Origin: Candidatus Obscuribacterales bacterium
GTDB lineage: Bacteria > Cyanobacteriota > Vampirovibrionia > Obscuribacterales > Obscuribacteraceae
DNA length: 64,000 bases
Assembly: GCA_965228855.1 (NCBI GenBank)
Contig: CBDDIJ010000003.1
Coordinates: 1,088,001-1,152,000 of the forward strand
Reading direction: 5' to 3'
This document shows, one piece after another, positions 13,517 to 40,037 of the stretch (positions are counted from its first letter, which is position 1; every line of letters starts with the position of its first letter). The position numbers and the translations under genes are program-made. Below the pieces are notes generated by a model that saw only the letters and a program-made list of their open reading frames with translations, made no database searches and was not told the DNA's origin.

Positions 13517-15025
13517 TCAACGTGAATAAAGCAGCCGAACGCTCAGTGGCTGAGAGCTTTCACGCATGGCGCCCGTAAGAGTTTCAGAATACCTTTCACT
13601 GTTGCACGATAATTTATTGGCTCGCTGACGGTCACCGATGCCGGTGATCTGGAGTTTAAATGGTTTGTCCTGGGAGTTTCGAATTGCTTCGAATTTGAAG
13701 CTGATAACCCCGTCGTGGAAGTTTATGGCTGACGAAGCGATTCCACGTAAGATTTGACCGGTTGGCGATTGAATTTCCAGATGTAGTTTGTTTTGCAATG
13801 CGCTCGAACCATCTGAATCTATAAGGTAGAGCGGTTCGAGATTGTCATCACTGTGTCTAGTCGGGAGTTCATGAAATTCAACTCCACAGAGGTAGTCGCT
13901 TTCGGCGATGACGTTTAAACTAATCGTGGCTGAAGCCCTCGCGTTTGCCAGCCAAAAGGATGGGGCATCAACTAACAAAGATTGAATGTCTTCCAGCCAC
14001 TGCGTTTCAATCAATTCTTGTCGATAGTTCTGAAACACTTTCTTGTGTGCATTGTGTCGAATCGACTCCTGCAGATCCTTATCAAAAGCCAGTCTTTGTA
14101 ATGCATTGAGCCAACCTTGCTTTGTGTTTTCAACCAGCAGTCCGTCTCTGTCATGTTCTACAGAGGAGGCATAAGCATCAACGTTTGAATAAATTCCTGC
14201 AATTCCGCACGCACCATAGTCCCGAAACTTTGTATTGTTTTTCGAACGGTTGAACTCGTTATCTTCAAGTGGTGCCAAACCGATGTTGAATCCACTGCGC
14301 GAAAATTCTCGAAGGAATTGATCGTAACGAGGCAGAAGTTTCCTGTGCGTTACTCCAGGCAGTGTAAGCAATTCCGAAGGTCGACATCCCCAGACGGTCA
14401 TCTCTGCCTTGTCCTGGTGCTGGTTTAAAAACTCGGACAGAGCAGGCAGAAACACCTTGTACTGATCGTCCACAGTTCGGCTGGTGGCGTATACAATACC
14501 AATTTTTGTTTTGTTAGGATTAAGAGCTTTAAGGTCTGGAACCTGGTTGAAGTCAAATGAGGAATTGTATACGCGGACATTACTGTTGAAGTGAGATACT
14601 TTCGTTTTAAGTAAGGGGCTGTAAACACGGACCAGCGAAGCATGTTGCAGATAGCTCTCTAATTGATTCAATCGAGATGGTTGTGTGTGATAACGCGCGA
14701 GGTCCGGATCGGTTGCCGACGGAATGTCCCAGAAGCTGTCATCGATATCGTAAATTATCGGTTTGCGCCGTCCTAGTGCCTCGTTCAATAAGTGACGAAA
14801 ACCTGGTTCGGTATTCCTGCAGTACACAATCAAATCTGCCCATTCAATCGCTGCTGAGGTGGTCGATTGCTCGGTTTGATGTTTAAACGCGATTTGCCCG
14901 GAGCTTGCCAGAGCGCTGAGCGGTTTGACCACATTAATCTGACAGCTAGCGATGTAAGACGGAATAATCGCCACTACCCGCGGTGTGCGTCTGCTCTGGA
15001 GCACATCCGTAAGGTGACGAAGCAC
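13517..15025 (-). CDS. GT-B glycosyltransferase (family 1/4-like) with C-terminal extension
   Basis: YDIDD and IGLAPLEDNEFNRSKNNTKFRDY motifs; 6 bp from the upstream GT2 gene. Confidence 0.85.
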   Translation of the reverse strand: MLRHLTDVLQSRRTPRVVAIIPSYIASCQINVVKPLSALASSGQIAFKHQTEQSTTSAAIEWADLIVYCRNTEPGFRHLLNEALGRRKPIIYDIDDSFWDIPSATDPDLARYHTQPSRLNQLESYLQHASLVRVYSPLLKTKVSHFNSNVRVYNSSFDFNQVPDLKALNPNKTKIGIVYATSRTVDDQYKVFLPALSEFLNQHQDKAEMTVWGCRPSELLTLPGVTHRKLLPRYDQFLREFSRSGFNIGLAPLEDNEFNRSKNNTKFRDYGACGIAGIYSNVDAYASSVEHDRDGLLVENTKQGWLNALQRLAFDKDLQESIRHNAHKKVFQNYRQELIETQWLEDIQSLLVDAPSFWLANARASATISLNVIAESDYLCGVEFHELPTRHSDDNLEPLYLIDSDGSSALQNKLHLEIQSPTGQILRGIASSAINFHDGVISFKFEAIRNSQDKPFKLQITGIGDRQRANKLSCNSERYSETLTGAMRESSQPLSVRLLYSR

Positions 15026-15031
15026 GCGTAC

Positions 15032-16585
15032 CTACCTTGCCGTTCCGACGGGCTCGCGGACTTCGGTAGCGGTTGCTAACCGTTGCTTGCTGTGGTCGAC
15101 GGCGTCTTTCAGAAGCGAGGGCAACGTTGGAAGAGGTTTTGCAACCACAATGATTTGATACGCGAACATAGTTCTTCTCAGCTTGATCAAGCTATTGTTC
15201 AAGTTAAGCAGAAAGTTCGCAAACTTCTCGTTTCTGATTACGAGAGGGTATGGCGCTGGAATACCTTCGACTTTTTCGACTTCGAAGCCGCTTTCAGCTA
15301 CTACGCGTTCCAAACTTTCAAATGTGAACAGGCGCGTGTGGCGCAGGTCCAGGATGCCTTTCTTTGAATAGTTGAACTGACCGAATAGATGCATTGAGCG
15401 CGTGATAAAAAATCCGACGTTCGCGCTGCTGACGATGAGCTTGGCTCGCTGATTGAATTTGCACGCTTCCATGAGTCGCTCCAGGAAAGCCTCCGGTGAA
15501 TGTGCTTGTTCTACAACATCCAGCATCAGAATATAGTCGTGCTCTGAAACGTCGATAGGCAGTTGCGAGTCGCTGTTCGGATCGTGCTGAAAGTATTCGA
15601 CGCTAGAACTGGCATTGCGAATTGGCGACTGCCGGTCAAGTACAGTGACGCGACACCCCTTTTTCTCAAGATGCGGTATCAGGTCAATTGCGGAATCGCC
15701 GCCGAACGTGAGCACTCTGGAGTTGGGAGAAACAAGTTCCAACGCCTTTGTTTGAGAACTTTCAAACGTCAATTTGGGGCGATGGCGCCAGGAATCAGTC
15801 TCGGCCGGCTGCACATCGAAGTTCCTTCTATACATCAAACAATAGGTTTGCAGACGCGCGGTGGCGCTTGCTTTCACGACATCCCAGGCATACTTGAGAC
15901 CGTTGACATGACACTTCTCATCGCCATAGTACGTGGGAATTGGCAGCTCTTTGATCTTCAGTCCGGCTACGATAAATTGAATGATGATTTCCGTGTCGAA
16001 GTGAAAGTCGTTGGTGTTTAGGTGGAACGGCAGCTTGGCCAGAGCTTTGGTGCTGTAGATTCGATAGCCGGTGTGGAATTCGCTGAGACTGCTTCCAAGG
16101 ACCTGGTTTTGAAACGCCGTCAAAATTCGGTTACCCACGTACTTGTACATGGGCATGCCGCCTTCAAGTGCGCCCGTGAGTGTCATCATCCGGGAACCGA
16201 AAACTGCGTCCGCCTCGCCGTTGACGAGCGGCATCAGAAGCTCTGGTAGACGTTCCGGCGCATATTGCCCGTCGCCGTGGACCAGGGCCACAAAGTCAAA
16301 ACCGCGTTCGATCGCATAGTGATAACCAATCTTCTGATTGCCACCATACATTTGGTTGACTGGGTTTCTCAGGACCGTGATTGGATAAGGAATTTCGCCC
16401 TTCATGCGTGCAGCTTCGGCGGCTTCAAAAGTCGAGTCTTTCGACGCATCGTCGATGATCAAGATCTCTGTGTCGTACTGCTGAAGCGAGTCCGGAATGC
16501 GCTTTAGAACTTTCTCGATCGTTTTCTCCGCGTTGTACGCGACGATGAAAATGAGTACACGGGCTTTGGCTGTAATGTCTGCCAT
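15032..16585 (-). CDS. GT2 (DPM1-like) glycosyltransferase fused to a class I SAM-methyltransferase-like domain
   Basis: IVAYNAE, IIDDASKD, HGDGQY, FGSR, FDTEII; C-terminal methyltransferase fold (DYILMLDVVEQ, GILD.RH.RLFT) with a degenerate motif I (TFGGDS). Confidence 0.88.
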   Translation of the reverse strand: MADITAKARVLIFIVAYNAEKTIEKVLKRIPDSLQQYDTEILIIDDASKDSTFEAAEAARMKGEIPYPITVLRNPVNQMYGGNQKIGYHYAIERGFDFVALVHGDGQYAPERLPELLMPLVNGEADAVFGSRMMTLTGALEGGMPMYKYVGNRILTAFQNQVLGSSLSEFHTGYRIYSTKALAKLPFHLNTNDFHFDTEIIIQFIVAGLKIKELPIPTYYGDEKCHVNGLKYAWDVVKASATARLQTYCLMYRRNFDVQPAETDSWRHRPKLTFESSQTKALELVSPNSRVLTFGGDSAIDLIPHLEKKGCRVTVLDRQSPIRNASSSVEYFQHDPNSDSQLPIDVSEHDYILMLDVVEQAHSPEAFLERLMEACKFNQRAKLIVSSANVGFFITRSMHLFGQFNYSKKGILDLRHTRLFTFESLERVVAESGFEVEKVEGIPAPYPLVIRNEKFANFLLNLNNSLIKLRRTMFAYQIIVVAKPLPTLPSLLKDAVDHSKQRLATATEVREPVGTAR

Positions 16586-16840
16586 GACAAACCTAATATA
16601 TGGGCTTCTACAAGCCGCAAATTTACCAAGGTAATGTAAAGGGGTCAAGATAAACCGTCTCACCTCGACAGTGAAGTTCCTCGTCCTGTGGTGATTTTGG
16701 GGCTTCTGAGCTATACACTGCGTATAGAAAAGTCTCGTTTCGGTTAAATATCCATAAGCTGGAGCGATTCAATCGGGTTAGCGTTGAAGAGGGGAAAGTA
16801 CTGACCTATCCTTCAGAGGTCGACTGGCTGTTTTTTCTCG

Positions 16841-18067
16841 ATGCCTAAATTCGTAGTTTCTCTCTTTATATTCTTGTTTATAGCTCTGTGGTTCGGGCAG
16901 TTCGCTTCTTTTGTTCAAAACCGCTATGAATATCCATTGCATAGTTGGTCCTGGTGGACGGTAAAGGAACTACGCAGTATCGCTGGCATCTCACGCACCA
17001 AGTTGAACGTTCAAGAAACATCACCAAATACGGTGCTACTCGGATCGTCCCTGATGGTAGTTGCAAATGCAGAATGTGACGCAACCTGGAGTAATGAGCG
17101 GCTCGACCTGACCACGTATCGCAAGGCGCGATATTTTGATGCGGTAATGGCTAGTGCCGACGAACGCACCGAATGCTGTTCAATCAATTTGTCGGCGCCC
17201 GGTCAAATTCCGTCGGATGCGTTTCTCACGCTGCAAGAGGCTGTGAATGAAGGTCTTCACCCTTCCCTGGTGATTTACGGCATTGCGCCTAGAGATTTCG
17301 TCGACAGCACCATGTCCAGTCCCTTTGAAACAGAAGGCTATAAATATTTGAGCCGATTGGTTTCGACTGAACGGATAGATAGCAAACTTCGAGATGATGT
17401 TGTTCAAAATCTCAGTCGTCAGCTGGTCACGTCAATACCTCTACTTCGTTATGCGGTCGATCTCCAGATGGCTTGCAGCAAATCTACTTTGGAACTGAGA
17501 GATTGGCTTCTGCGGCGCGGCATTGAAACGATGTCGTTGGAAAAGCGTATGGCGCTAATTTCATCGTATAAGCCACTGGATATGGTGCCTGGCTTCATTC
17601 ACGCTGAAATTGCGAATGAAGCAGAGGTTGAGAAACTTTACGCCGATAATTTGTCTGACTATAAAGCAAGATATGCGCGACCGAAAGCCGAATTCTACGA
17701 TGGTCAGCTTTCCTGTTTGGAAGAACTGGCAAGGTTTTGCATGGATAACCAAATCGAGCTGGTCGTGGTTAATATGCCAATTCGAAAATGTAATTTAGAT
17801 TTGCTCTCCCCAGGCATTCGCTCAAAGTATTTAGCTGACGTCTCGCACATCAGCACTGAATACGGTGCTGAATTTGTAGACTTGTGCGAAGTCGATAAGT
17901 ATTCCAAGAGCGATTATCGTGATTCGGTTCATTTGAACGGTTTCGGCGGCCGCAAGTTTCTGGACCGGTTGGTTGCAGCAATCGCAGACCAGCCTGGCAT
18001 TTTTAAATCTCTGCGCAGGCGGGTTCCTCGAGTCGCTGCTCGAGAAACTCTCGAGTCTCCGCTTTAG
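16841..18067 (+). CDS. Membrane-anchored SGNH-like protein (DUF1574/DltD/AlgJ-like)
   Basis: N-terminal TM, block I LLGSSL, VVVNMP and block V DSVHLN. Confidence 0.7.
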   Translation: MPKFVVSLFIFLFIALWFGQFASFVQNRYEYPLHSWSWWTVKELRSIAGISRTKLNVQETSPNTVLLGSSLMVVANAECDATWSNERLDLTTYRKARYFDAVMASADERTECCSINLSAPGQIPSDAFLTLQEAVNEGLHPSLVIYGIAPRDFVDSTMSSPFETEGYKYLSRLVSTERIDSKLRDDVVQNLSRQLVTSIPLLRYAVDLQMACSKSTLELRDWLLRRGIETMSLEKRMALISSYKPLDMVPGFIHAEIANEAEVEKLYADNLSDYKARYARPKAEFYDGQLSCLEELARFCMDNQIELVVVNMPIRKCNLDLLSPGIRSKYLADVSHISTEYGAEFVDLCEVDKYSKSDYRDSVHLNGFGGRKFLDRLVAAIADQPGIFKSLRRRVPRVAARETLESPL

Positions 18068-19694
18068 GGTTCAAATGACTGATTTTTATCTGCGCGTCCG
18101 GAGTTCCCTTTGCCGTGAGATGCTTGCGAAAAGCCTCGTAGGTTCCGCTCTTAATTAGTTTGAAGGTGACCGGTGAAAGTCGTGCGGAGGCGCGCTTGGT
18201 TTCATACTCTATGTTCTCTTCTTGAAGGCGACGATCGAAACGTTGCGCGAGGTCTTCAGCAAAGCCTTTTCGTTCATGATCGACGCCGCGATCGGCAAGA
18301 TTTGCATCGATTTCATACCAGATCTCATAATGCGGTTCCGGCCGGAACTGCGGAATCAACGTGAAGAAACGCAGGTTGGTTCCGATGTCGTCCAGCGTTT
18401 TGCGCATCGCTTGCGTGACTTGTAACTCTGTTATTTTCTCGCCTGTGAAAGAACAGATGTTCCCGCCCTTGTATTGGAAATCCAGTAGTGGAGTGCGATT
18501 GTGAAAACCGGTGACCTTTACGACATCGTTGATGTTGTATCGATAAAGACCAGCCGAAGTGGTAAAAAGGATAAAGTAGTTTTTCCCGACTTCTAGTTCA
18601 TCGGCTAAAAGTATCGTGGGTCTCTCAGAGTCGATCTCATCTTCAGGAACAAATTCGAAGAAATGCGAGCCTATTGCCAGCATCTGTTTTTCCGGAGAGA
18701 TGAAAACCGTTCCTCGCCCCTCGCTGGCACCATATGTGATATCAACTACTGGAGTGTTTCCGAAGTAGTGAGGAAAGTCTGCAAGATAGAATGCCGCCGC
18801 TGCTTTGGTCCAGCAAGATACTACCTGTAGCGATGGGAAAACATGTTCAGGTGTGAATTTGCCTTGCTCAAGGAGTCTGGCAAGCATCTTTGCGCGTTCC
18901 GGATCTGGTCGCGTGATCGGTTTTAACGCCCGCAGGGTTGCCTGATCGAGACCTGATGGCGGCGTTGTGGTGCCATCCCGAACGTCCTTAATTAATTGCT
19001 CAGCAAATACACCGAGTTTGCGACACAGTAGTTGAATGGTGCTCGGATTGAGCGTGTAGAAGAATGCTACCGGGAGCGACAGAGCTGCGCGAAGTACCGT
19101 GTAATACTTTGATTCGTAGTCTTTGATCAAATAGACTTCGTATGGAATTGGTGAAATGAATTTCTTGATCAAATAGGGCTCGTTCTTAAACAGCGAACCG
19201 GACATCGAACCGTAAGGAATTCCGCAGGGCGTTTTACCTTCTTCAGCCGGCGACGTCATCGCGAGAGCCGTGCCAGACGCCATGCCGGGGAAGGTTTTAA
19301 GCAAGTAATAGCCGGAGACGACAGATGCGTGTCGGAATTCCTTAATATAGGATGGCGTAATCGGAATAAATTTTGGTTTATCTGTTGTGCCGCTCGTGGT
19401 GGCAAACATAACTGGAGCTTCGGCGGTAAGTACGTTGGTGGCTCCGGCTGTAAGTTCGTCTATGTAGGGTCTAAACGCCTCGTAATCGCGAATTCGAAGG
19501 GCCGCATCAAAGTCTTTCCAAGTCTTGATTGTAGCGAAGCCATGTTCGCGTCCGAATTTGCTGCCGGCGTTAGCCGTCAGAATTTGATTCATCTTCCGCA
19601 GCTGGGCTTCGCGAGGCGAGGCACTGTCTGACTCTATAGCGTTGACAGTTTTTCGACCGAGCGCGCTGAAGGCTTTATAGAGTAAACCGCGCAT
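18003..19694 (-). CDS. GH3 family acyl-acid amido synthetase (adenylate-forming ligase)
   Basis: TTSGTT..PK.IP, YGASEG, FFEFVP, GLYRY...D and GEK motifs typical of GH3. Confidence 0.9.
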   Translation of the reverse strand: MRGLLYKAFSALGRKTVNAIESDSASPREAQLRKMNQILTANAGSKFGREHGFATIKTWKDFDAALRIRDYEAFRPYIDELTAGATNVLTAEAPVMFATTSGTTDKPKFIPITPSYIKEFRHASVVSGYYLLKTFPGMASGTALAMTSPAEEGKTPCGIPYGSMSGSLFKNEPYLIKKFISPIPYEVYLIKDYESKYYTVLRAALSLPVAFFYTLNPSTIQLLCRKLGVFAEQLIKDVRDGTTTPPSGLDQATLRALKPITRPDPERAKMLARLLEQGKFTPEHVFPSLQVVSCWTKAAAAFYLADFPHYFGNTPVVDITYGASEGRGTVFISPEKQMLAIGSHFFEFVPEDEIDSERPTILLADELEVGKNYFILFTTSAGLYRYNINDVVKVTGFHNRTPLLDFQYKGGNICSFTGEKITELQVTQAMRKTLDDIGTNLRFFTLIPQFRPEPHYEIWYEIDANLADRGVDHERKGFAEDLAQRFDRRLQEENIEYETKRASARLSPVTFKLIKSGTYEAFRKHLTAKGTPDAQIKISHLNPKAETREFLEQRLEEPACAEI

Positions 19695-19799
19695 CTGTAT
19701 CTCGCAGATTGGACCCTTATCGGGTTCTAAGAAGTTATGACAAGCTTGGCATTATACTTTGATTTACCTCGGTCTTTGAGGTCTCGGGTCTGGAAACTT

Positions 19800-20993
19800 A
19801 TGCTCGTCATCGCCGTTTTCCTTGTTTCTGTAACCGTTCTGGTGGCTTTTGTTCAGAGCCTGGCCTTTGCTCGTCTAGTTCGTTACGTGGAAGCAGAACT
19901 GGCAAGACAGACCGGGCAGCAACTTCCTAAAGCATCTGTAATCTTGCCGTGCAAAGGCTTGGATCCCGCTTTTCGCGAAAACGTGGAGAAGCTGTTGAAT
20001 CAAGATTACCCGGATTTCGAGGTGATTTTTGCCGTAGCTCAAGAATCTGATCCGGCTTACGCGCATCTTGTTGAACTTGCTTCGCAGTCGCCCAAGCCTG
20101 CGAAGGTTATTGTCGCGGGTGTTGCGGCTCAGAGAGCGCAGAAAATCAACAATCAATTGCATGCTCTGGAACAGATTCGAAGCGATTCTGATGTTCTCGT
20201 ATTTGTCGACAGCGATGTAATTGCTCGACCGGATTTTTTGAGTCGGCTTGTTGAGCCGCTCACTGAAGACGGAGTTGGTGTTACAACCGGCTACCGTTTT
20301 TACATTGCCTCCCCGACAAACTGTGCTGCGATTCTGAGATCTCTCTGGAATCGTGTCACAGCTTGGGAAATGGCAAATCCAAAATTTGCCTTTGCCTGGG
20401 GCGGTGCTATGGCGATTCGCAAATCTGTTTTTACCGAGGCTGGAGTTCGGGACGCCTGGGATAAGGCGGCTGACGACGATCTGTCTCTTACCACGAGTGT
20501 CAAAAAACTGGGATTATCAGTACGGTTCGTTCCCCAGTGCCTGGTGGCGAGTGATGGCGATGCGCCTTTTGGAGAAATAATGGAATGGACGAATCGGCAA
20601 CTAATTTTGACGAAGGTTTACTATCCTGAACTTTGGAAGCGGGCAATCGCGCGCGCATCATTCATGCTGGTCTGGCTGGTTCTGATGCTGATTGCAACCG
20701 GGTCTTGGCTTGCTACTCAGGAGCCTGCTGGTTTAATTGCCGTTGCAGCTGGTTTCACGATCGTTCCGGTCGAAGTGTTTTTCCTTCTGAAAGCGCGAAA
20801 GCTTTGGCAGAAAATTCTTCTCGACCATTCGGACCATCTTACTGAATCTTTGCTTGCCTCGTGTATGGCTATACCGCTGGCACACGCAGTCTTGCCGTTT
20901 ATGACGCTTGCATCTTTACTTACAAATCGAATTCAGTGGCGTGGTGTTACATACGAACTGAAGAGCCCTACCGAGACACTGGTGATAGGCTGA
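19800..20993 (+). CDS. Ceramide glucosyltransferase/HpnI-like glycosyltransferase (GT21/GT2)
   Basis: N-terminal TM, PCKG, QDYP, KINN, FVDSD, DDLSL, W..RQ and C-terminal WRG..Y; the ORF track gives an alternative start at 19737. Confidence 0.85.
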   Translation: MLVIAVFLVSVTVLVAFVQSLAFARLVRYVEAELARQTGQQLPKASVILPCKGLDPAFRENVEKLLNQDYPDFEVIFAVAQESDPAYAHLVELASQSPKPAKVIVAGVAAQRAQKINNQLHALEQIRSDSDVLVFVDSDVIARPDFLSRLVEPLTEDGVGVTTGYRFYIASPTNCAAILRSLWNRVTAWEMANPKFAFAWGGAMAIRKSVFTEAGVRDAWDKAADDDLSLTTSVKKLGLSVRFVPQCLVASDGDAPFGEIMEWTNRQLILTKVYYPELWKRAIARASFMLVWLVLMLIATGSWLATQEPAGLIAVAAGFTIVPVEVFFLLKARKLWQKILLDHSDHLTESLLASCMAIPLAHAVLPFMTLASLLTNRIQWRGVTYELKSPTETLVIG

Positions 20994-21003
20994 GTATGTC
21001 TTG

Positions 21004-22467
21004 CTACGCGTCTGCTGTCACCTTTTGAGAGTTCGATTTCAACTCGATTTCCGGGAGGAAAATGTTCAGGACTATGGCGAAAACCAGGCTGCCAGCGTAC
21101 AGCATTAGTGCAATCGGTAACTGCGAGTGTTCATGCCCATTATGTTGAAGCCAGACAAGCAATGCTCCCATCATTCCTGTTCCGATTGTTCCGCCAAGAG
21201 AGCGAAACAAACTGGATAATGAAGTGGCTATGCCCATTGAGCTGTCTTGAACGGCATTTTGAATGATAATCGAGTGGACTGGAAGCATCAGTCCGAGACC
21301 GATTCCGCCGACTACGCCGGAGCAAGGAACTAGCCACATCGGTGCGTCAGGCGATACCGTACACAGTATCAATGTTCCTAGCGTCATTAGCACGAGTGAA
21401 AGGATAATCAGGGCTCGATACTTTCCGGTTTTCGAGATCAGTAGACCGCCGACAATGCTCGCGCTTGCTACAACCAGCATCAGAGGAGCGAGGACGGCTC
21501 CGGACATGGTTGCCGTCAATTTATAAACTTGCTGGAGAACCATCGCCATCAGAAGCATTGAACCAAAAAATCCAATTCCGGTTATGAACACAGTCACAAG
21601 CGAGATGCTCACGATTCGATTCTCAAAAAGCGCCAGCGGTATCAGCGGTTCTTCGGCCGATTTTTCGCGCGCAATAAAAAGCCTGATTGAGGAAATTGAA
21701 ACGATAATTTCCATGGCGCTGTTCATTGTGAACCGACCCTGTGTGCCTATTTCGTTAGACAGGAAAAGTAGCGGCGCCACAGAGAGGATAAACAATCCAA
21801 TGCCCGGCCAGTCAATTTTCGGTTTCGCTTTCTCTCTCTTTGATTCAGGGTAGAGAAGCACGAATATGAGGGACGCTAGCACTCCTACCGGAATGTTTAA
21901 ATAAAAAATCCAGCGCCAATCAAACTTGTCTGTGAGCCAGCCACCAAGTACCGGTCCAATAATGGCGGCGATCATGAAATCTGCCGCCAGCACACCCTGG
22001 AACTTTCCGCGCTCTCGGGATGGCATCAGATCCCCGATTGCCACAAAACATAGCGCCATCATGGCACCACCAGCGATACCTTGCAAACCGCGAAAGAAGA
22101 TAAGTTGATCCATCGCGCCGAATGTCGCGCCTGTCGACCCCGGAAATCCCGGCAGGCTGATGAAGCCGGACACGCCACACAGTGCCGAAGTTGCGGCGAA
22201 CATGAGAGAGGAAAAAGTGAGCATCGGTTTCACTCCGAAAATATCGGCCAACTTTCCGGCCACCGGAGTTGCGAACGTGGCAAACAGCAAGTAAGAAGTG
22301 ATAATCCAGGGGGCGCGATTGACATCATCAAGCACTACCGAAATCTTCGGAATCGCTGTGTTCAAAACGGTCTGGTCGAGTGCCGACATGAAAATGACCA
22401 GCAACAGACCTGACAGTGCGCCACCCGAAATTTTAGAATTTTTCCGTTCTGCGGTGGCTTCTGAAAT
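21004..22467 (-). CDS. DHA2 (EmrB/QacA) MFS efflux transporter; probable non-canonical ATT start at 22467
   Basis: SALDQT..TA.P, W...SYLL, GKLAD.FG.K, RGLQG, GP.LGG and WRWIF..N.P motifs; 16 bp downstream of the GT4 stop. Confidence 0.88.
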   Translation of the reverse strand: MSEATAERKNSKISGGALSGLLLVIFMSALDQTVLNTAIPKISVVLDDVNRAPWIITSYLLFATFATPVAGKLADIFGVKPMLTFSSLMFAATSALCGVSGFISLPGFPGSTGATFGAMDQLIFFRGLQGIAGGAMMALCFVAIGDLMPSRERGKFQGVLAADFMIAAIIGPVLGGWLTDKFDWRWIFYLNIPVGVLASLIFVLLYPESKREKAKPKIDWPGIGLFILSVAPLLFLSNEIGTQGRFTMNSAMEIIVSISSIRLFIAREKSAEEPLIPLALFENRIVSISLVTVFITGIGFFGSMLLMAMVLQQVYKLTATMSGAVLAPLMLVVASASIVGGLLISKTGKYRALIILSLVLMTLGTLILCTVSPDAPMWLVPCSGVVGGIGLGLMLPVHSIIIQNAVQDSSMGIATSLSSLFRSLGGTIGTGMMGALLVWLQHNGHEHSQLPIALMLYAGSLVFAIVLNIFLPEIELKSNSQKVTADA

Positions 22468-22483
22468 TGTTCGTCTCCGGATA

Positions 22484-23818: not shown

Positions 23819-24170
23819 TCGTTTTCAGTCCTGGTAATGAAGAGTATTATACTCGGGTCTTTAAAGAGTCTTAGCACTCCATTTTGTTCTCGTTGACTTA
23901 CCTTCCGACACATTTGGAGAGGTATTTTAACGAATTAAGTTAATTTTCGTTCAGGTCTGAAAAGGGCGCTCCTGGCAAGCGTTCAAAAGATAAAACCTGG
24001 CTTCTGGCATTAAATGGAAAGAGATCATAGACTTCTCGTATGAACCCTGGTCGCCATTGCGCATGCTACATGCTAAGGCAGCAGGGTCATTGGGGAGAGG
24101 GGAAGACGAATATCGCCATCGATTCGCGAAAGCGAAGGTAGATACGTCGTTTGTTTTGTTGGAGTGATTA

Positions 24171-32921: not shown

Positions 32922-32987
32922 TAACGCAGCTCGAGCAACCGCTCGAACAACTACGCAAGTCGAACGTGATGTTCGCACATCAGTAAT

Positions 32988-35900
32988 ATGAGCTCCGCCG
33001 CAAATCGAAATTCTGGAAAGATAGCAATTGTAGGAATGTCCTGCCTCTACCCAGGCGCACCGGATCTCTCCAGCTTCTGGTCGAATATCGTGCGGGGCGT
33101 CGACGCCACCCGTGAGGTCTCTCCTAGCGAGTGGAATGTCGATGATTACTACGATCCCGAGTCGCGTAAGTTCGGCAGTGTTTACTCTAAACGTGGCGGT
33201 TTTATAAGCGAATATGCTGACTTCGATCCGCTTCAGTTTGGAGTCATGCCATCTGGTGTCGCCGGTGGTGATCCAGACCAGTTTCTGACACTGCGAGTTG
33301 CTCACGAGGCAATGGCTGATGCAGGCTATCTCGATGGCAAAAAACAATTCGATAAAGATCGCGCTGAAGTTATTTTGGGCCGCATATCGGCTCCCGGTGC
33401 GGGAAGTATGAACTTGACCCATCAGTCGAAGACCGTTCATGAAGTTACCGGTCTTCTTCGTGGACTTTTACCGAACCATCCGGAGGTTGTAGACGCTGCG
33501 GTTAGCGAAATGACGAGTCGTCTGGTTACGTGCAATTCGGATACCATTCCGAGCGCGATGCCGAACGTGCTTGCTGGACGAATAGCTTCCAAACTCGGAT
33601 TTCGTGGTCGAAATCTATTGATCGACGCCGCTTGTGCTTCTTCGATGGTAGCGGTTGAAACGGCAGTCCAAGACCTTCTTAGCCACCAGTGTGATTTCGC
33701 TCTGGCTGGCGGTTTGCATGTCAATGCTTCTCCCGTATTTTTCCAAATGTTCTGTGGTCTCGGTGCATTATCGCGCAAGGACATCATTCGTCCGTTCGAC
33801 GAATCAGCGGATGGAACATTGCTTGGAGAGGGCATCGGCATCCTTGTTTTAAAGCGCCATGAAGACGCGATTGCGGATGGCGATAGAATCTATGCCACGA
33901 TCTGCGGCGTAGCGTCCTCCAGTGATGGATACGGCGGAAGTGTTCTCTCACCGTCACTTGACGGGGAGGCACTGGCGATGGAGAAAGCCTACAAGATGGC
34001 CGGTATCTCGCCCAAGAGCATAGGTCTGCTGGAAGCCCACGGGACGGGCACTCCGACTGGCGACGTGGTGGAACTGCAGGCTGTTGAAAAAGTGTTCGGA
34101 CAAGCATCGGAGAGTCGAGACGGCAAGCCATGGTGCGCGGTTGGTTCAGTCAAGTCCATGATTGGACACTGTCAATCTGCGAGCGCTGTTGCTGGGATTA
34201 TCAAAGCCGCGCTTGCCCTTCATCATAAAATTTTGCCCCCCACTTTGCACGTTTCCGAGCCAAACCGCAAAATTAACTGGGAGAAACATCCTTGCTATGT
34301 GAATACCCAGTCGCGTCCGTGGATCCATGCTGAGAATTCTGAGGAAGCTCGTCGTGCGGCGGTTAGTGCATTTGGGTTCGGTGGAATCAACGGGCACATG
34401 ATTCTTGAGGAAGCGGAAAAGGGTTCCTCTATGACTCGCCATAAGAGTGCTGTTAAAGCTGCTTCGGAACAAGGAATGCCGGTCACTCCGGCTGCCTCAC
34501 TGGCGTCACTCGACAGTGCTCTGATGCGTGACTGGGATTCGGAGGTGTTCGCATTCAGTGCCAATTCTCCCGGTGAACTTGCAGGAGATTTGGAGAAACT
34601 GGAGACTTACGTGTCGCGCTCCATGGAAAGCGGCATCGTAGAGGGATTTTTTAAGGACCTTGCATTCAGCATTAACTGCAGGAATCCAGGAACGAATGGC
34701 GCCACAGGCGGTGCCATCAAGCCGGCTAAAAACAGCCGTAAGATTTATCGTCTGAGTATTGTTGCTGCAAACCCGGATGAATTAGTTAGCAAAGTTCAGT
34801 ATGCTCGCAAGTTAATTGAGGCGGGCAAGCCTGCTGTGCAAGAGGCAGATAAGGGTGTTTACTACACCAGCCCAGGCACCGCCATCGGTGGCAAAGTCGG
34901 ATTCCTCTATCCGGGATTAGGTTCCGCATACGGTGGAATGCTCTCTGATCTGTGCATGCACTTCCCTGAAGTGCGCGAAGTCTTCGATATTGTCGATACC
35001 GTCGCGTTAGCGGAAAAGGCGTCGATTTTACCAAGTCGAATGATTTTTCCGCCGGACCGTGATTCCTCGAATTCAATGGAATTGGCGTCCGCAGATTTCG
35101 CTGTCGTGGCCATTCTTCTTGCCGAATATGCTTTGCACCAATTGCTTTTGCATCTCGAAATTAAACCTGACGCCCTTATGGGATGCAGTACCGGTGAATT
35201 TGCCGCCATCACTACTGGTGGTGCCGTAGATGTTCTAAGTGTGTCAGAAACGTTTTACGGATTGAGTACTAATGTTGCCCGCGCGATTCCAGCCGCTGCG
35301 CTGGCAGAATTGCGCTCGCTTCGTATTCTCGCTCCTGCAAGCGATGTTATGGCACTCGTTAAAAACAACGATGTCCATCTGAGTGCTGACCTTGGAGAAC
35401 GACACATTATTGTCACTGGCACCATAGCTGGTACCGATTCGCTGACAGATGAATTAGCAAAGCGCAAGTTTGTTTCCCAGGTTCTTCCCATCGCAATCCC
35501 CTACCATACGCCGCTAGTTCACGACCTGATAGACGGTGAGCATGATGCCGTCAAGTCTGTAGACATCCGACCTCTTGTGGTGCCGAGCTATGCCTGTTCC
35601 ACAGCAGAGCGATATCCAGGCGATGAGAAGCAATTGCGGGCGATGTTCACGGACCTATTTACAAAGCCGATCAGGCTGCGCGAAACCATACAGAAGATGT
35701 ACGAAGATGGTATCCGACTTTTTATCGAGGTTGGCCCAGGTGGGGTGCTTTCGAGCGTGGTCGATGGCATCCTCGGTAGTAAGCCGCACATAGCTGTTCC
35801 TACAAACTTATCATCGAAACCCGCACTGACACAGCTTAACCACGTTCTAGCTGCGCTTTATACCCAGGGTGTGTCAGCAAATTTCAATTATTTATATATG

Positions 35901-38006
35901 CGTCGAGCTCCTGTTGAGCTGGATTGGCGCTCGCTAAAAGCTCCCGTGGTTAAACGCCAACCGCTCAAGCTTTCGCTTGTTCACACCAAGCTTGAAGTGT
36001 CGCCTGGACTCGCTGTCCCTCCTGCGGAGCCCGTTTCGCAACTTTCTTCTTTGCCGGATAATTCACCTCACGATCGCTATGAAGACACTCAGAGCGACTG
36101 CGGAAGTAGTGAGGTTGAATCCGCTAATTTGCTAGGCTCTTTTATGAACACCAACGCAGCGTTTTACTCGCGGATGGCAGCAACGCAGGAGAGAATAATG
36201 ACCGCTTTTCTCTCATCCAATGTCGAGCAGCAGTTCTCTGATGAAACCAACATCTATGCTAGTGATGAAGTTCAACACCTCCCGGGCGGAGTGTCACAAT
36301 ACCAGTTGCAAGATGACCTACAAGCAAGCGAATTTCCTGTCTTTCAGCAGAATCGAGAAGCTTTCGTAAACGTCTCAGAGCCGCCGTTTCTTAGCCGCTT
36401 CCGAATTCGATCGGTTTCCGGGTCTACGGAATTTGATCTGCACATTGGGCTTGATACCGATCTCTATTTGTTAGACCATGCCGTTGGCGGTCAGGTCAGC
36501 GTAGAGCCTCCCTCGCGTGTTTTCTTGATGCCTCTCATGGTTTCTCTTGAAATTATGGCTGAGGCCGCTTCTGCCCACGCACGCGAGAAGTTAATCGTCA
36601 GACTGGAACAAGTCAAAGCCTTCAAACGAATCTCTGTTGACCATCTTGGAGTCGATCTTCATTTAACTGCAAGCGGTGATAGTAGCCGCGTTCACGTCAA
36701 AATGTTTGACGCTGGCGACTTGGTAAATCCGATTTTAATCGCTGACTTTTTGTTTGCCATGCAATATCCGACAGTTGGTTCGGCTCCTGAAATTACGGTC
36801 AGCGGTCACTCTCCGACGAACCTCAAGGAGCGATCGCAGCTTTATGCCCCGCCCAATATGTTTCACGGACCCCGAATGCAGGCGGTGACTGCGATTACGA
36901 ATGTCGGCAACAAAAGTATTGAGGGCTTGGCAGAAGCTTCTCCTGCGCGTTACTGGATGCCTCATGTACCGGTAGCGAACTTCCTGTTACACCCACTATT
37001 GCTCGATAACGCAAGTCAGTTTGTTCTCTTCTATTTGTACGAGAAACAGATGCCGGCGATTGCGCTATTGCCATTTTTCATCGAGTCGGTTGAGTTCTTT
37101 TACTCCCCCAATGATCTACCGCCTGTTATTTCGGGACGTGCTCTCCTGCATACCGTTTCTGAAAAGGCGACCGAGGCGAAGGTTGAGGTTGTAGATGATC
37201 GGAATCGAGTTTGGATGCGTGTAAATGGCATCAACAGTAAGCGAGTGATGCCTCATGAGAAGCTTGTCGACTTCTTCCATAAGCCACTTCAACGACACAT
37301 CGCGACCCGCCTGACAGTCAATAAGACCTTGAGTCACCTGTGCGTATTAACCGAGTTTAAAACTGGCTTGTTGCCAACTGATGACGCTATTTTGGATTGG
37401 TGCCTCGATTATTTACTAACGAGGAGTGAGCGCAGCTTTTGGCGCACACAACTCAAATTCGAGAAACGCAAGGCAGACTGGCTGCATGGACGAATTGCCG
37501 CCAAAGAAGCCGTTCGAATGCTTGTCAAAGAACGCCTCGGGCGAGAAATCGGAATGCTCGACATCGAGATTTCAAACGACTTCGAGCGACGTCCTTTGGT
37601 TGCTGTGAGTGGCGGAATTGCCGGTCTGTCAATTTCCATATCTCACACGGACGGCATCGCTATGGCGCTCGCGAGTTTTCTCAGCGATGGCAAGCCCGGT
37701 GTTGATGCGGAGAAAATTCAAACTCGCGACCCTGATGTCGCAGACCGGTTTTTGACAATGGACGAGTTGGGTCACCTGAACTCGTGCGCATCGCATTTGC
37801 GTGATGCTGAACTCACACGGCTCTGGTCGGCGAAGGAAGCTGTCTACAAGTCCTTGGGTGGGGAATTCGAACTCACATCGTTCGAAATAGATGTCACTTC
37901 TATGACACCATATGCGATGTCAATCCGCAACACTGGCTCGGCCAACAAATTTCAAGTTTTTTCAGAATTAGTCGGCGATTACGTGCGCTCATATACGCTT
38001 GCATGA
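32988..38006 (+). CDS. Type I PKS partner subunit: KS-AT-DH-Sfp-type PPTase
   Basis: KS DAACASS / EAHGTGT / MIGHCQ; AT GCSTG + PYHT; DH LLDHAVGG...LMP, FHGP, LLDNASQ; PPTase GRIAAKEAVR, SISHT, GVDAE, WSAKEAVYK. Confidence 0.93.
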   Translation: MSSAANRNSGKIAIVGMSCLYPGAPDLSSFWSNIVRGVDATREVSPSEWNVDDYYDPESRKFGSVYSKRGGFISEYADFDPLQFGVMPSGVAGGDPDQFLTLRVAHEAMADAGYLDGKKQFDKDRAEVILGRISAPGAGSMNLTHQSKTVHEVTGLLRGLLPNHPEVVDAAVSEMTSRLVTCNSDTIPSAMPNVLAGRIASKLGFRGRNLLIDAACASSMVAVETAVQDLLSHQCDFALAGGLHVNASPVFFQMFCGLGALSRKDIIRPFDESADGTLLGEGIGILVLKRHEDAIADGDRIYATICGVASSSDGYGGSVLSPSLDGEALAMEKAYKMAGISPKSIGLLEAHGTGTPTGDVVELQAVEKVFGQASESRDGKPWCAVGSVKSMIGHCQSASAVAGIIKAALALHHKILPPTLHVSEPNRKINWEKHPCYVNTQSRPWIHAENSEEARRAAVSAFGFGGINGHMILEEAEKGSSMTRHKSAVKAASEQGMPVTPAASLASLDSALMRDWDSEVFAFSANSPGELAGDLEKLETYVSRSMESGIVEGFFKDLAFSINCRNPGTNGATGGAIKPAKNSRKIYRLSIVAANPDELVSKVQYARKLIEAGKPAVQEADKGVYYTSPGTAIGGKVGFLYPGLGSAYGGMLSDLCMHFPEVREVFDIVDTVALAEKASILPSRMIFPPDRDSSNSMELASADFAVVAILLAEYALHQLLLHLEIKPDALMGCSTGEFAAITTGGAVDVLSVSETFYGLSTNVARAIPAAALAELRSLRILAPASDVMALVKNNDVHLSADLGERHIIVTGTIAGTDSLTDELAKRKFVSQVLPIAIPYHTPLVHDLIDGEHDAVKSVDIRPLVVPSYACSTAERYPGDEKQLRAMFTDLFTKPIRLRETIQKMYEDGIRLFIEVGPGGVLSSVVDGILGSKPHIAVPTNLSSKPALTQLNHVLAALYTQGVSANFNYLYMRRAPVELDWRSLKAPVVKRQPLKLSLVHTKLEVSPGLAVPPAEPVSQLSSLPDNSPHDRYEDTQSDCGSSEVESANLLGSFMNTNAAFYSRMAATQERIMTAFLSSNVEQQFSDETNIYASDEVQHLPGGVSQYQLQDDLQASEFPVFQQNREAFVNVSEPPFLSRFRIRSVSGSTEFDLHIGLDTDLYLLDHAVGGQVSVEPPSRVFLMPLMVSLEIMAEAASAHAREKLIVRLEQVKAFKRISVDHLGVDLHLTASGDSSRVHVKMFDAGDLVNPILIADFLFAMQYPTVGSAPEITVSGHSPTNLKERSQLYAPPNMFHGPRMQAVTAITNVGNKSIEGLAEASPARYWMPHVPVANFLLHPLLLDNASQFVLFYLYEKQMPAIALLPFFIESVEFFYSPNDLPPVISGRALLHTVSEKATEAKVEVVDDRNRVWMRVNGINSKRVMPHEKLVDFFHKPLQRHIATRLTVNKTLSHLCVLTEFKTGLLPTDDAILDWCLDYLLTRSERSFWRTQLKFEKRKADWLHGRIAAKEAVRMLVKERLGREIGMLDIEISNDFERRPLVAVSGGIAGLSISISHTDGIAMALASFLSDGKPGVDAEKIQTRDPDVADRFLTMDELGHLNSCASHLRDAELTRLWSAKEAVYKSLGGEFELTSFEIDVTSMTPYAMSIRNTGSANKFQVFSELVGDYVRSYTLA

Positions 38007-38045
38007 TTGCATATCGCTAAGCTCTAGACTTGGTGTGTTAAAGAC

Positions 38046-38354
38046 CTAAATGTCTATCGTGACATGCGATTTTAGCCATCGCTCTAAATCTGCAACATCA
38101 CTGAAATCTAAAAGAGCAACTGCTAGCTGCTCCAGTTGCTCCAGAGACAGCTCCGTTATCTGTGCGCAGACCTGTCCCAGTTCGCCGAAGCGTCTGGTAA
38201 GCAATGAGTTTACCAGTGATGCTGCTTCACCATGTCGACCTTGCAGAAGTCCTAACTCCATTCCGCGAGCCTGGCCTTGTTCGAGTCCTTGTTCGCGACC
38301 CCTTTCGAACCCCTCTTTGAGCCCCTTTTCCATCCAACTAGTTACAATTTCCAT
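38046..38354 (-). CDS. Putative internally translated small Rpn C-terminal protein (RpnS-like antitoxin), 102 aa
   Basis: In-frame ATG (MEIVTSW) directly preceded by GGGAGGGAGTT inside the rpn gene. Confidence 0.55.
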   Translation of the reverse strand: MEIVTSWMEKGLKEGFERGREQGLEQGQARGMELGLLQGRHGEAASLVNSLLTRRFGELGQVCAQITELSLEQLEQLAVALLDFSDVADLERWLKSHVTIDI

Positions 38355-39038
38355 AACTCCCTCCCTGCGAGGTTCTTCAAGCTGTTCCAGGGCCGCGACG
38401 AATAGACTCTCTTCCGACTCATTGAGTCTCAGGTATGAATCTACAAAACCCGCGATAAGTCTCGATTTAGCTCTGTCAAGTCTCAAGTCGGCGATCATTC
38501 TCAGGCATTCCAATTTTACCCTGAAGCGCTCATGCTGAGCAAATTTCATCTTTGCCATGAGTGCCGCCGAGACAGGGCTATCGCGTTTCAAGTAACTGCG
38601 CCAATTTAACCTGTTGAGCTGTATCACCTTGTATTGAAATCTCAGTACCTCCAGTCCAGGAAGCTTGAGTTCATAGCAGGAACCTTGCTGAGTGAAAGGG
38701 CGATCGAATGAGAATAAAACTATTGGATAAACCGGTAGATTGTGGCGCTCATGGAGTCGCGAAAAGTAGCAAAACATTCGTCGCTCAAAGGAATTCTGAG
38801 CGTGCGCCTGTGCTTCTGTATGCACCAGGATAAATGAGTCATTAGAACGTAAGCGTACTCGCGCAACCAGATCGGCCTCATACGCATCACCGGCGGTGAC
38901 ATCAGTGAAGAGTTCTTTATCAAGAAAAACAATGGAAGCTGGGTCCAGGCAGTCAAACAGCGATGGAAGGAAGAGTTCTATGAATTCGGAGAAAAATGTC
39001 GTCAGCAACTCCTTGAACAATCTATCGTGATCCGTCAT
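38046..39038 (-). CDS. Rpn/YhgA-like PD-(D/E)XK nuclease (putative transposase family) with DUF4351-like C-terminus
   Basis: MTDHDRLFKELL..FF.EFIELF, ADLV...HTEAQ, RMF.YF.RL, PVYPIV; EQG repeats and RRFG.L...LEQL..ALLDF....DL..WL; GGAGG RBS before ATG 39038. Confidence 0.9.
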   Translation of the reverse strand: MTDHDRLFKELLTTFFSEFIELFLPSLFDCLDPASIVFLDKELFTDVTAGDAYEADLVARVRLRSNDSFILVHTEAQAHAQNSFERRMFCYFSRLHERHNLPVYPIVLFSFDRPFTQQGSCYELKLPGLEVLRFQYKVIQLNRLNWRSYLKRDSPVSAALMAKMKFAQHERFRVKLECLRMIADLRLDRAKSRLIAGFVDSYLRLNESEESLFVAALEQLEEPRREGVMEIVTSWMEKGLKEGFERGREQGLEQGQARGMELGLLQGRHGEAASLVNSLLTRRFGELGQVCAQITELSLEQLEQLAVALLDFSDVADLERWLKSHVTIDI

Positions 39039-39295
39039 GTAAACCTCCTTCAAAGAATCCAAAGTCTGAATGTCCGCCGCGCGCATGCAGCACAGGTTCT
39101 CTGTGCAGCAATTAGCGAGCAAACTTTTCGTGGGGAGATTGCTTCTAATGAAATAGACGTCTGATCAAGGAAAAAAGTTCAAAAATTTGAGATGTCAGCA
39201 TAGTAAAGTTTCCGCCCCGTCTGGCTAAATGATTTCGCTACACTCAAGCTTGATTCGACGGAGACGATTGTTGATTCAGTGAAGTAAATGGGGGG

Positions 39296-39841
39296 CTAGG
39301 GTGCGCCGCTCGCCTGTACCTTTGAAGAGATCTCAGACTTCCGCTGTTTGTCGTACAGTTCTTCAGCTAGTTTTTGCGTCTTGTGGAGACGAGTCCGTAC
39401 TTTTCCTTTTATGAATTGATTGATCAGAAATCGCGGAATAGGCAGCCCAGGCTCAATGTTAGACGTCAACTTCAACCGAGTCTTCGCTTGCTCAACTGGC
39501 GTTAACTCCCACTTGCCGGACATCTCCTTCAGTGATTTATCCGCTTCGATCAATTCATAGGACAAAAGTTCGTTTTCTTTGACGGTGATTCTCAGCGTTG
39601 TTTGAACCGTGCCGTAGAACGGAATTCTTTCAAATTTCTGCTGGACTATCGCTTCTTTGCCCTCTGTCGACTTAATATCCGCGTCGAATTTGTCTGCACT
39701 GGTCACGGCTCTCCACACGCACTCTTTCGGAGCGTTTACCAAGGTCGTATCCGACACGGAGTTGTCGGATTTCGCCGAAGCCTGCCCGTGCAGCGCACTC
39801 AGGATGGTTATGGATGATATTAGGACCAAGCCTTTATTCAT
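39296..39841 (-). CDS. Exported SRPBCC/START (polyketide cyclase/dehydrase-like) lipid-binding protein
   Basis: Signal peptide; VNAP.E.VW, G.WEL.P and P...IP.FLIN helix-grip pattern. Confidence 0.75.
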   Translation of the reverse strand: MNKGLVLISSITILSALHGQASAKSDNSVSDTTLVNAPKECVWRAVTSADKFDADIKSTEGKEAIVQQKFERIPFYGTVQTTLRITVKENELLSYELIEADKSLKEMSGKWELTPVEQAKTRLKLTSNIEPGLPIPRFLINQFIKGKVRTRLHKTQKLAEELYDKQRKSEISSKVQASGAP

Positions 39842-40037
39842 AGACGCCTTTGGACATTTCCCGGTCACCAGGATCATACCCAGATTCTTACGCAACTCCC
39901 CGCTTGTAGCAAAGGTTTTAGCCGGAGATGACAGCTTGTATATCAATTCCCCGAACCTTTCAATCCGGACTGAAACTGCTAACAGCCATTCATGAACGCA
40001 CTGCTACCGCCCGCGATACCAGCCCGGCAAGTGTGTA

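Follow-up and report, generated by a model that had tools for sequence, protein, structure and literature searches.

A secondary lipid synthase kept together with a GH3 ligase and a GT21 glycosyltransferase in the Obscuribacterales, and its predicted glycosylated N-acyl lipid

A polyketide synthase (PKS) pair, encoded by PKS1 and PKS2, lies beside genes for a GH3-family acyl-acid amido synthetase (GH3) and a GT21 lipid glycosyltransferase (GT21) in a 64,000-nucleotide stretch of the genome of a Candidatus Obscuribacterales bacterium (GenBank assembly GCA_965228855.1, contig CBDDIJ010000003.1, forward strand; C3:1088001-1152000 in our numbering). This whole stretch is called the window, and it sits in an 8.2-Mb genome of 6 contigs that is 95% complete. 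All four stay linked and show a common pattern of inheritance throughout the order Obscuribacterales. They are the real unit of the locus, while genes for a GT4 glycosyltransferase, an MFS exporter and a secreted SRPBCC protein are variable accessories. The new element is the fixed partnership of a secondary lipid synthase with a GH3 ligase and GT21, which was not found in print. By analogy with characterised enzymes, the cluster is predicted to make a long saturated or partly hydroxylated acid which would be freed, then amidated by GH3 and then glycosylated by GT21, a scheme whose chances we consider evenly balanced.

Genes were called from a listing of open reading frames (ORFs) together with Pfam and NCBIfam family scans of the window's proteins (Table 1). 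All genes and domain orders named in an earlier, sequence-only reading of the window were recovered, as were the shared orientation of PKS1 and PKS2 and the divergence of GT4 and MFS from PKS1, from which they are separated by a gap of 352 bp. GH3 and GT21 are also divergent, with starts 42 bp apart. Counts from a promoter and terminator scan were near, or only moderately above, those of shuffled sequences, and no site marks an operon boundary. Relatives, contigs, loci and families are denoted below by G, C, L and f numbers, and papers are cited by PMC number, from partial texts.

Conservation was assessed from the PKS neighbourhoods of relatives, on to which the window's 22 proteins were mapped by tblastn. 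Upstream of PKS1, 19 genomes had 2.6 kb or more of sequence: six from the window's genus, 12 from elsewhere in family f1 and one from family f2. They span about 13 genera and two families; as the genomes are kin, the counts are not independent events. GH3 lay at most 5 kb from the PKS1 start in 18 of them. In the nineteenth (G021) the contig ends before GH3, and its GH3 and GT21 are on other short contigs. GT21 was in the cluster in 16/19 genomes and elsewhere in the genome in G012 and G022. In relatives it is co-oriented with PKS1-PKS2, with GH3 divergent. Environmental contigs from relatives mostly 90-95% identical carry GH3, GT21, MFS and GT4 on one contig. A look for RNA runs over positions 16800-26700 found none, those aligned being contigs throughout.

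Presence and absence follow the same pattern. PKS was found in 26 of 27 relatives within the order, GH3 of the linked clade (at least 45% identity) in 25 (not found in G009 or G025) and GT21 in 24 (not found in G009, G025 or G015, the last being 77% complete). G009 (89% complete) is without PKS, GH3 and GT21, its only match for the PKS being FabF-like. Searches of 13 genomes from six further families of the class yielded neither PKS nor linked GH3 nor GT21, although two of these genomes gave GH3 matches of only 31-32% identity. All PKS-adjacent GH3 proteins form one clade (SH-aLRT 99) in a GH3 tree of 27 rows, from which the split copy of G016 was dropped. This tree and a PKS1 tree of 19 rows (three unrelated giant ORFs dropped) have in common the clades (G012,G022), (G011,(G013,G020)) and (G017,G024) and that of genus g1. 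The question raised in the sequence-only reading, whether the tailoring genes stay linked to the PKS pair, is thus answered in the affirmative for GH3 and GT21, which stand beside PKS1 in 18/19 and 16/19 genomes, come and go with the PKS and, for GH3, share its clades. This near-universal occurrence and the apparently vertical descent point to a lipid of the lineage's envelope or membrane and not to a sporadically occurring antibiotic.

Adjacency could instead be inherited gene order with no shared pathway. Neutral synteny does persist in the order, since a proline dehydrogenase gene lies beside GH3 in six of the 19 genomes, one of them from the second family (L060:16184-17326, L081:8745-9890, L057:6159-7247, L074:13902-14918, L089:10605-11375 and L100:11824-12831), joined in five by an unknown gene of about 400-430 aa; both are single-copy and unlinked to the cluster in the window's genome (C5:493356-495820). 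This adjacency is probably old synteny, though some connection with the amine substrate is conceivable. However, the linkage of GH3, GT21 and PKS outlasts rearrangements that moved every other neighbour, the three are jointly missing in G009, and the GH3 and PKS1 trees are congruent, which makes gene order without a common pathway very improbable.

The synthase is of the PfaA/HglE secondary lipid kind, as had been proposed. PKS1 scored 1178.8 bits, in three stretches, against the NCBIfam PfaA model (TIGR02813; cut-off 1010.1), and a six-frame search of the genome, which scores the pieces separately, gave 808.7 and 334.1 bits, neither of which passes alone. A PDB search with KS1-AT1 returned a trans-AT PKS bimodule as top match and was of no help in typing the synthase. 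The catalytic motifs of KS1, AT1, ACP, KR, DH1, ER2, AT2 and PPTase are all conserved. KS1 has Cys-His-His, with the active-site Cys kept in all orthologues, and the KR Tyr and the DH1 catalytic His/Pro and DSxMQ are conserved among them. The Arg of AT1 in 'RG', which we take to be the malonyl-binding Arg of FabD, is invariant. The ACP motif EAD(L/M)GIDSIKR is kept in all orthologues; PKS1 contains no second carrier motif (GxDS) and gave one PP-binding match only.

PKS1 begins with two fused enoyl reductase (ER) domains. ER2 aligns with FabK over its full length and ER1 with the second half only. Motif III, where the catalytic His of FabK and PfaD is proposed to lie (PMC13311796), is ECGGH in ER2 in 19/19 sequences (window included), placing it with the FabK/PfaD-type reductases. 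ER1 has GAGR in place of GGH; of 18 orthologues, 15 share this Arg and the remaining three carry His, Leu or Phe. The label ER* given to ER1 from sequence was therefore apt, since it carries Arg at the catalytic His position of ER2 and FabK. As such ER domains function as dimers, and two different ERs of a thraustochytrid synthase heterodimerise (PMC13311796), it is reasonable to read the fused pair, by analogy, as one structural and one catalytic ER.

The linker upstream of the ACP varies in length among the environmental relatives, with 54 bases skipped at 29407-29462 and indels of 6 bases at 29264 and 29856. PKS1 is broken into several frames in G016, as is GH3 (L057/L058, G016:C5). In G008 it matches piecewise, with an internal stop in one piece (L100/L101, G008:C4). 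Both cases may be decay of the cluster or assembly indel errors.

PKS2 is more variable. The window's genus has the full KS-AT-DH-PPTase form (about 1620-1770 aa), as do G017, G021, G023, G024, G016, G020, G014 and G015. Forms of 881-1556 aa without KS, or without KS and DH, are found in G013, G019, G011, G012, G022 and G018, those of G012 and G022 being AT and PPTase only; PKS2 of G008 is partial (tblastn). AT2 and PPTase are the parts retained in every complete PKS2, with KS and DH dispensable in some genera. DH2 motifs are kept wherever DH2 is present, and the motifs of the PPTase are also kept. The latter is of Sfp type, with 4PPT_N slightly under its cut-off (26.4 versus 27). Since KS2 keeps Cys-His-His, it is judged from its residues not to be a chain-length factor (CLF), and AT2 starts about 150 residues after KS2, leaving no space for one. 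In G020, G013, G011, G017 and G022 the PKS1 and PKS2 genes share a 4-bp overlap.

Proteins of PKS2 layout occur in other phyla (about 29-31% identity; 1272 representatives at E ≤ 1e-30, some titled Gammaproteobacteria and Verrucomicrobiota), so the synthase belongs to the broad secondary lipid synthase family and alone is not new. A further type I PKS frame of 2484 aa, 34% identical to KS2, lies elsewhere in this assembly, at C6:19664-26344 on a contig of 40 kb.

Both DH domains are of PS-DH type and not FabA-type, and the pair has neither the FabA-type DH and KS-CLF pair nor the tandem ACP of polyunsaturated fatty acid (PUFA) synthases. A family scan of ORFs at 13.5-40 kb found no FabA-type dehydratase, thioesterase or thioester reductase (including NAD_binding_4) in the cluster, and no ABC exporter was found among the same ORFs. 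The release by thioester reductase and the HgdBC/DevBCA export genes of heterocyst glycolipid (hgl) islands are thus absent. Because KR, DH and ER are all present and there is no isomerising dehydratase, the chain is expected to be saturated or partly hydroxylated, and a polyunsaturated product is unlikely.

Release of the chain may be the task of AT2. Its motif G(C/V/F)STGE is found in 23/23 orthologues and IPYHT in 21/21 of family f1, and the position of AT1's invariant Arg is taken by a small hydrophobic residue, mostly Val. There are two precedents: a thraustochytrid PUFA synthase's AT-like domain (GLSLG, not GHSLG) is a thioesterase releasing free acids (PMC8003026), and PfaB is a terminal long-chain acyltransferase (PMC12895367). 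A free-acid product would suit the pathway because GH3 enzymes need a free acid. Alternatively, GH3 and AT2 could act at the start, with AT2 loading a non-malonyl starter or GH3 preparing a conjugated one, and the chain leaving the ACP by direct transfer. An AT that has lost the malonyl-binding Arg and keeps its Ser-His dyad also fits a loading AT, and the nearest solved relatives of AT2 are loading and extender PKS ATs. However, no GH3 that matched, or that is covered in the partial text of PMC12493201, is described as acylating a carrier thiol, and a starter-loading AT2 would leave the system without a release function. Moreover, the AT- and PPTase-only PKS2 of G012 and G022 shows that AT2 is needed even without KS2. 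Action at the start is accordingly held to be improbable.

GH3 is a clear member of its family (PF03321 219.8, PF23571 84.8 and PF23572 64.6 bits), in which the nucleotide motifs TTSGTTDKPK, YGASE and GLYRYNIND are recognisable against those in PMC12493201. In the PDB it is related to plant GH3 amido synthetases (E 1.6e-33). The bacterial GH3 enzyme OlsH uses ATP to turn free fatty acids into N-acyl ornithine (PMC12493201), and the product of the window might likewise be an aminolipid resembling ornithine lipids, GH3 N-acylating an amino acid with the 3-hydroxy acid from the PKS, a hydrolase-type enzyme adding a second acyl group, and GT21 working on another lipid such as diacylglycerol. OlsH/OlsI does pair GH3 with an alpha/beta-hydrolase O-acyltransferase (PMC12493201), alpha/beta-hydrolase genes stand at the cluster edge in G017 and G024, and a DUF1574 gene with a far DltD lead adjoins GH3 in the window's genus. 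On the other hand, the conserved core includes no hydrolase, GT21 abuts PKS1 and tracks its presence and absence, and the OlsH equivalog cut-off is missed widely, so an aminolipid of this type is quite unlikely. The two edge hydrolases (L051:13121-14164 in G017 and L062:13502-14608 in G024), each abutting MFS, are 44% identical to each other; their best match in the window's genome lies elsewhere (C3:890949-891845).

In addition to the cluster's own, the window's genome carries two GH3 genes, each next to other genes related to lipids, which makes three in all. The second GH3 (41% identical to the window's) is in an operon with alpha/beta-hydrolase and enolase-superfamily enzyme genes (C3:2313640-2317384). 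This locus continues with three SDR/epimerase-like genes, a Mpo1-like gene among them, to give a stretch of C3:2313640-2322140, with a SRPBCC paralogue about 4 kb off. No NCBIfam match of the enolase-family enzyme reaches its cut-off; N-acyl amino acid racemase-like families are among the best. The third GH3 (C2:1761013-1762725; 52% identical to the window's) is near LptF/G and apolipoprotein N-acyltransferase (Lnt) genes, without a nearby PKS. Giant ORFs beside GH3 in G001 and G004 and beside the genome's GH3 paralogue are unrelated to one another.

GT21 enzymes glycosylate lipid hydroxyls. The sole PDB relatives of the window's GT21 are ceramide glucosyltransferases (E 7.6e-15), and its hydropathy profile has one N-terminal and three C-terminal peaks. 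It matches HpnI (TIGR03472) over the full length at 116.9 bits, below the equivalog cut-off of 310. A hopanoid role was rejected, as there was no match for squalene-hopene cyclase (SQHop_cyclase_C) in the 95% complete genome.

It is also conceivable that no amide is formed, with GT21 (and GT4) glycosylating a hydroxy or keto chain directly, as for heterocyst glycolipids, and GH3 having some other task, such as re-activation or recycling of acids. Heterocyst glycolipids come from a related Pfa-type synthase and a glycosyltransferase (PMC3098273, PMC11804610), and it is GT21, not the divergent GH3, that is co-oriented with PKS1-PKS2 in relatives. However, the cluster is without a thioester reductase for the alcohol that heterocyst glycolipids bear, the linkage of GH3 is tighter than that of GT21 (18/19 versus 16/19), and all characterised GH3 enzymes that matched, in PDB or in PMC12493201, form amides. 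Direct glycosylation of the chain therefore appears unlikely.

The most economical path thus runs from the synthase through hydrolysis by AT2 to GH3 and GT21, given the precedents for AT2, the use of free acids by GH3 enzymes and the type of acceptor of GT21. In such a path the cis-acting PPTase would prime the single ACP, and KS1, AT1, KR, DH1 and ER2 would run full reduction cycles on malonyl units, with KS2 and DH2 joining some cycles where present and ER1, which lacks the catalytic His, serving as dimer partner of ER2. AT2 would then hydrolyse the chain off the synthase to give a free long-chain acid. GH3 would adenylate this acid and amidate an amino acid or amine in the manner of OlsH, and membrane-bound GT21 would glycosylate a hydroxyl of the N-acyl product. 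In the window's genus GT4 might add a second sugar and MFS might export the lipid, for which the secreted SRPBCC protein may be a periplasmic carrier.

Several observations weigh against this path. GH3 is far from the OlsH equivalog (NF052613; 97.2 bits against a cut-off of 620), with its two paralogues in the genome scoring 105.4 and 107.6 bits. The third GH3 falls within the PKS-linked clade yet adjoins no PKS; GH3 of the linked type therefore needs no PKS next to it in order to act, and ordinary fatty acids may be among its substrates. In sequence AT2 resembles PfaB (E 5.8e-6) less closely than it does malonyl transferases and modular-PKS ATs (E 1e-19 to 1e-15). Its off-loading role is suggested by motif changes and analogy, and it could load starters instead. 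G025 (94% complete) has the PKS, and neither GH3 nor GT21 was found in it, which counts against strict dependence of the PKS on them; its PKS contig stops about 320 bp upstream of PKS1.

A more specific version of the amide path can be put forward tentatively, although we think it doubtful: the product may be a lineage-wide mimic of glucosylceramide made without sphingoid-base chemistry, in which GH3 joins a very long acid from the dedicated Pfa-type synthase by an amide to a hydroxyl-bearing amino acid or amine and GT21 adds the sugar. If true, a secondary lipid synthase would here be coupled to a GH3 ligase for the first time in any pathway, and the product would be a new class of glyco-aminolipid and a biomarker for non-photosynthetic cyanobacteria. 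The host had been taken for a non-photosynthetic cyanobacterial relative, in agreement with which no match to the photosystem reaction-centre family (Photo_RC, PF00124) was found in the 95% complete genome.

Linkage of the remaining genes is partial or local. MFS was in the cluster in 9/19 genomes, GT4 was within about 15 kb of it in 9/19, and SRPBCC adjoined PKS2 in 7 of the 18 genomes having downstream flank, so that the earlier grouping of these genes with the PKS pair holds in part. SRPBCC is indeed on the far side of PKS2, and a Rpn/DUF4351 gene separates the two. This gene is an insertion outside the pathway; G007, a 95% identical relative, retains only fragments of it. Alignments of SRPBCC orthologues start at residues 33-38; if translation is taken to begin at Met 36, the N-terminus resembles a signal peptide, so the protein is probably secreted.

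DUF1574, the GT2-methyltransferase fusion (GT2-MT) and the 502-aa glycosyltransferase, which had been counted in the pathway, were linked in only four of the 19 genomes, all of the window's genus. In those four the order of the aldehyde dehydrogenase, NanE and rhomboid genes is conserved too; the linkage is therefore uninformative, and the three genes do not qualify as members of the cluster. The gene described as SGNH-like is present, the only basis for that label being DUF1574 and a far atlas lead to DltD. The DUF1574 family is expanded, with at least eight paralogues elsewhere in the genome (23-33% identity), three of which are clustered at C2:2302421-2306280.

Table 1. Genes and synthase domains of the locus, with positions in the window
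Feature	Coordinates	Strand	Motifs and family matches
GT1-like 502-aa protein	13517-15025	-	GT1-type Pfam matches under cut-off (22.5 vs 27); atlas 0.97 to GT1 cluster
GT2 + methyltransferase fusion	15032-16663	-	PF00535 + PF13489
DUF1574 membrane-anchored protein	16841-18067	+	PF07611, 29.7 bits, barely above cut-off 29.1
GH3-family acyl-acid amido synthetase (core)	18003-19694	-	Pfam GH3 N, M and C domains, E 6.5e-65
GT21 lipid glycosyltransferase, membrane-anchored (core)	19737-20993	+	PF13506, 63 bits vs cut-off 21.7
DHA2/EmrB-type MFS exporter (accessory)	21004-22404	-	TIGR00711, 233.2 bits vs cut-off 230.2
GT4 glycosyltransferase (accessory)	22484-23818	-	PF13692, 78.9 bits; PF00534, 73.5 bits
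PKS1, ER*-ER-KS-AT-linker-ACP-KR-DH, 2916 aa (core)	24171-32921	+	
PKS1: ER1, degenerate FabK-like	24171-25127	+	covers only FabK residues 96-250
PKS1: ER2, FabK/PfaD-type enoyl reductase	25128-26177	+	TIGR03151 (FabK) match over residues 328-669
PKS1: KS1	26238-27671	+	DAAC(A/G)SS, Cys 881; HGTG; NIGH
PKS1: AT1, malonyl-type	27975-28859	+	GHS(Y/F)G; (A/P)FH(S/T); invariant Arg in 'RG'
PKS1: Q/P/G/N-rich low-complexity linker, ~300 residues	29088-30020	+	upstream of ACP
PKS1: single ACP	30039-30290	+	PF00550; EADLGIDSIKR, Ser 1987
PKS1: KR	31026-31697	+	PF08659, 109 bits; DY(V/C)xANE
PKS1: DH1, PKS-type double hotdog (PS-type)	32037-32852	+	HxxxGxxxxP His/Pro; DSxMQ
PKS2, KS-AT-DH-PPTase, 1672 aa (core)	32988-38006	+	
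PKS2: KS2	33018-34445	+	DAACASS, Cys 216; HGTG 351; MIGH
PKS2: AT2, non-canonical acyltransferase-like, putative off-loading domain	34902-35777	+	G(C/V/F)STGE; IPYHT
PKS2: DH2	36435-37256	+	LDHAxGG; LLDNAxQ
PKS2: Sfp-type PPTase	37461-37985	+	PF01648, 58.4 bits vs cut-off 25; ISISH; GVDAE; WSAKEA
Rpn/DUF4351 putative transposase	38046-39122	-	PF14261, 69.5 bits
SRPBCC/START-like protein, probably secreted, possible lipid carrier (accessory)	39296-39946	-	PF10604, 29.5 bits

A gene set present in almost every member of the order probably encodes the synthesis of a structural lipid, and this lipid would be a chemical marker. The Obscuribacterales are uncultured, and relatives bearing the cluster occur in runs labelled bioreactor sludge and in other metagenomes. 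Identity of the lipid would give a first function for large bacterial GH3 clades left open by the OlsH paper (PMC12493201) and a comparison point for the origin of glycolipid envelopes, for example the heterocyst layer, in the phylum. The four-gene core, at about 17 kb, is small enough for direct expression.

A literature search on polyketides and hglE-KS in this lineage, and on GH3 in connection with PUFA synthases, PKSs or N-acyl amino acids, found no publication on the partnership of GH3 and GT21 with a synthase or on lipids of Obscuribacterales. The main texts of PMC11804610 and PMC13291983, supplements aside, mention neither GH3 nor a cluster of this kind.

Among known systems, PUFA synthases of the PfaA-PfaD type (PMC3098273) share with the window an iterative type I KS-AT-ACP-KR, PS-type DH, a FabK/PfaD-type FMN ER, two KS domains, a second, non-malonyl AT and an associated Sfp-type PPTase. 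The ISISH motif of the window's PPTase fits the 'hShxH' form given there for types M to T. PUFA synthases have tandem ACPs, whereas PKS1 has one ACP and an N-terminal fused tandem ER*-ER; the window's pair is also without a FabA-type dehydratase/isomerase and a CLF, and its PPTase is fused to the second subunit. Partnership with GH3 and GT21 is not described for any secondary lipid synthase type in the texts compared, including the partial text of PMC3098273.

Ceramide glucosyltransferase and HpnI have the GT21 fold family, membrane anchors and a lipid-hydroxyl acceptor in common with the window's GT21, the acceptor of which would instead be a PKS-derived N-acyl compound. The layout of ArsA and ArsD of Azotobacter vinelandii is presumably close to that of the window's PKS pair. 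They are likewise a two-protein Pfa-like synthase (type P), whose saturated C22-C26 chains go into a specialised envelope lipid (PMC3098273, PMC13291983). The ArsA/ArsD chain passes straight to type III PKSs, whereas the window's cluster is without a type III PKS.

In the hgl islands of Cyanobacteriia, which belong to the same phylum, a Pfa-related synthase and a glycosyltransferase also give an envelope glycolipid. These islands include a HglB-type thioester reductase and HgdBC/DevBCA export genes. The window's cluster has no thioester reductase and no HgdBC/DevBCA-type exporter, differs in domain layout and has GH3. The islands have been traced to one ancestor within Cyanobacteriia, with Vampirovibrionia used only as tree root in the partial text of PMC11804610. 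Finally, in OlsH/OlsI of planctomycetes a bacterial GH3 amidates a free fatty acid with ATP to give a membrane aminolipid (PMC12493201), as is predicted for the window. However, no OlsI-type partner is part of the conserved core, in which GH3 is linked instead to a dedicated synthase and a glycosyltransferase.

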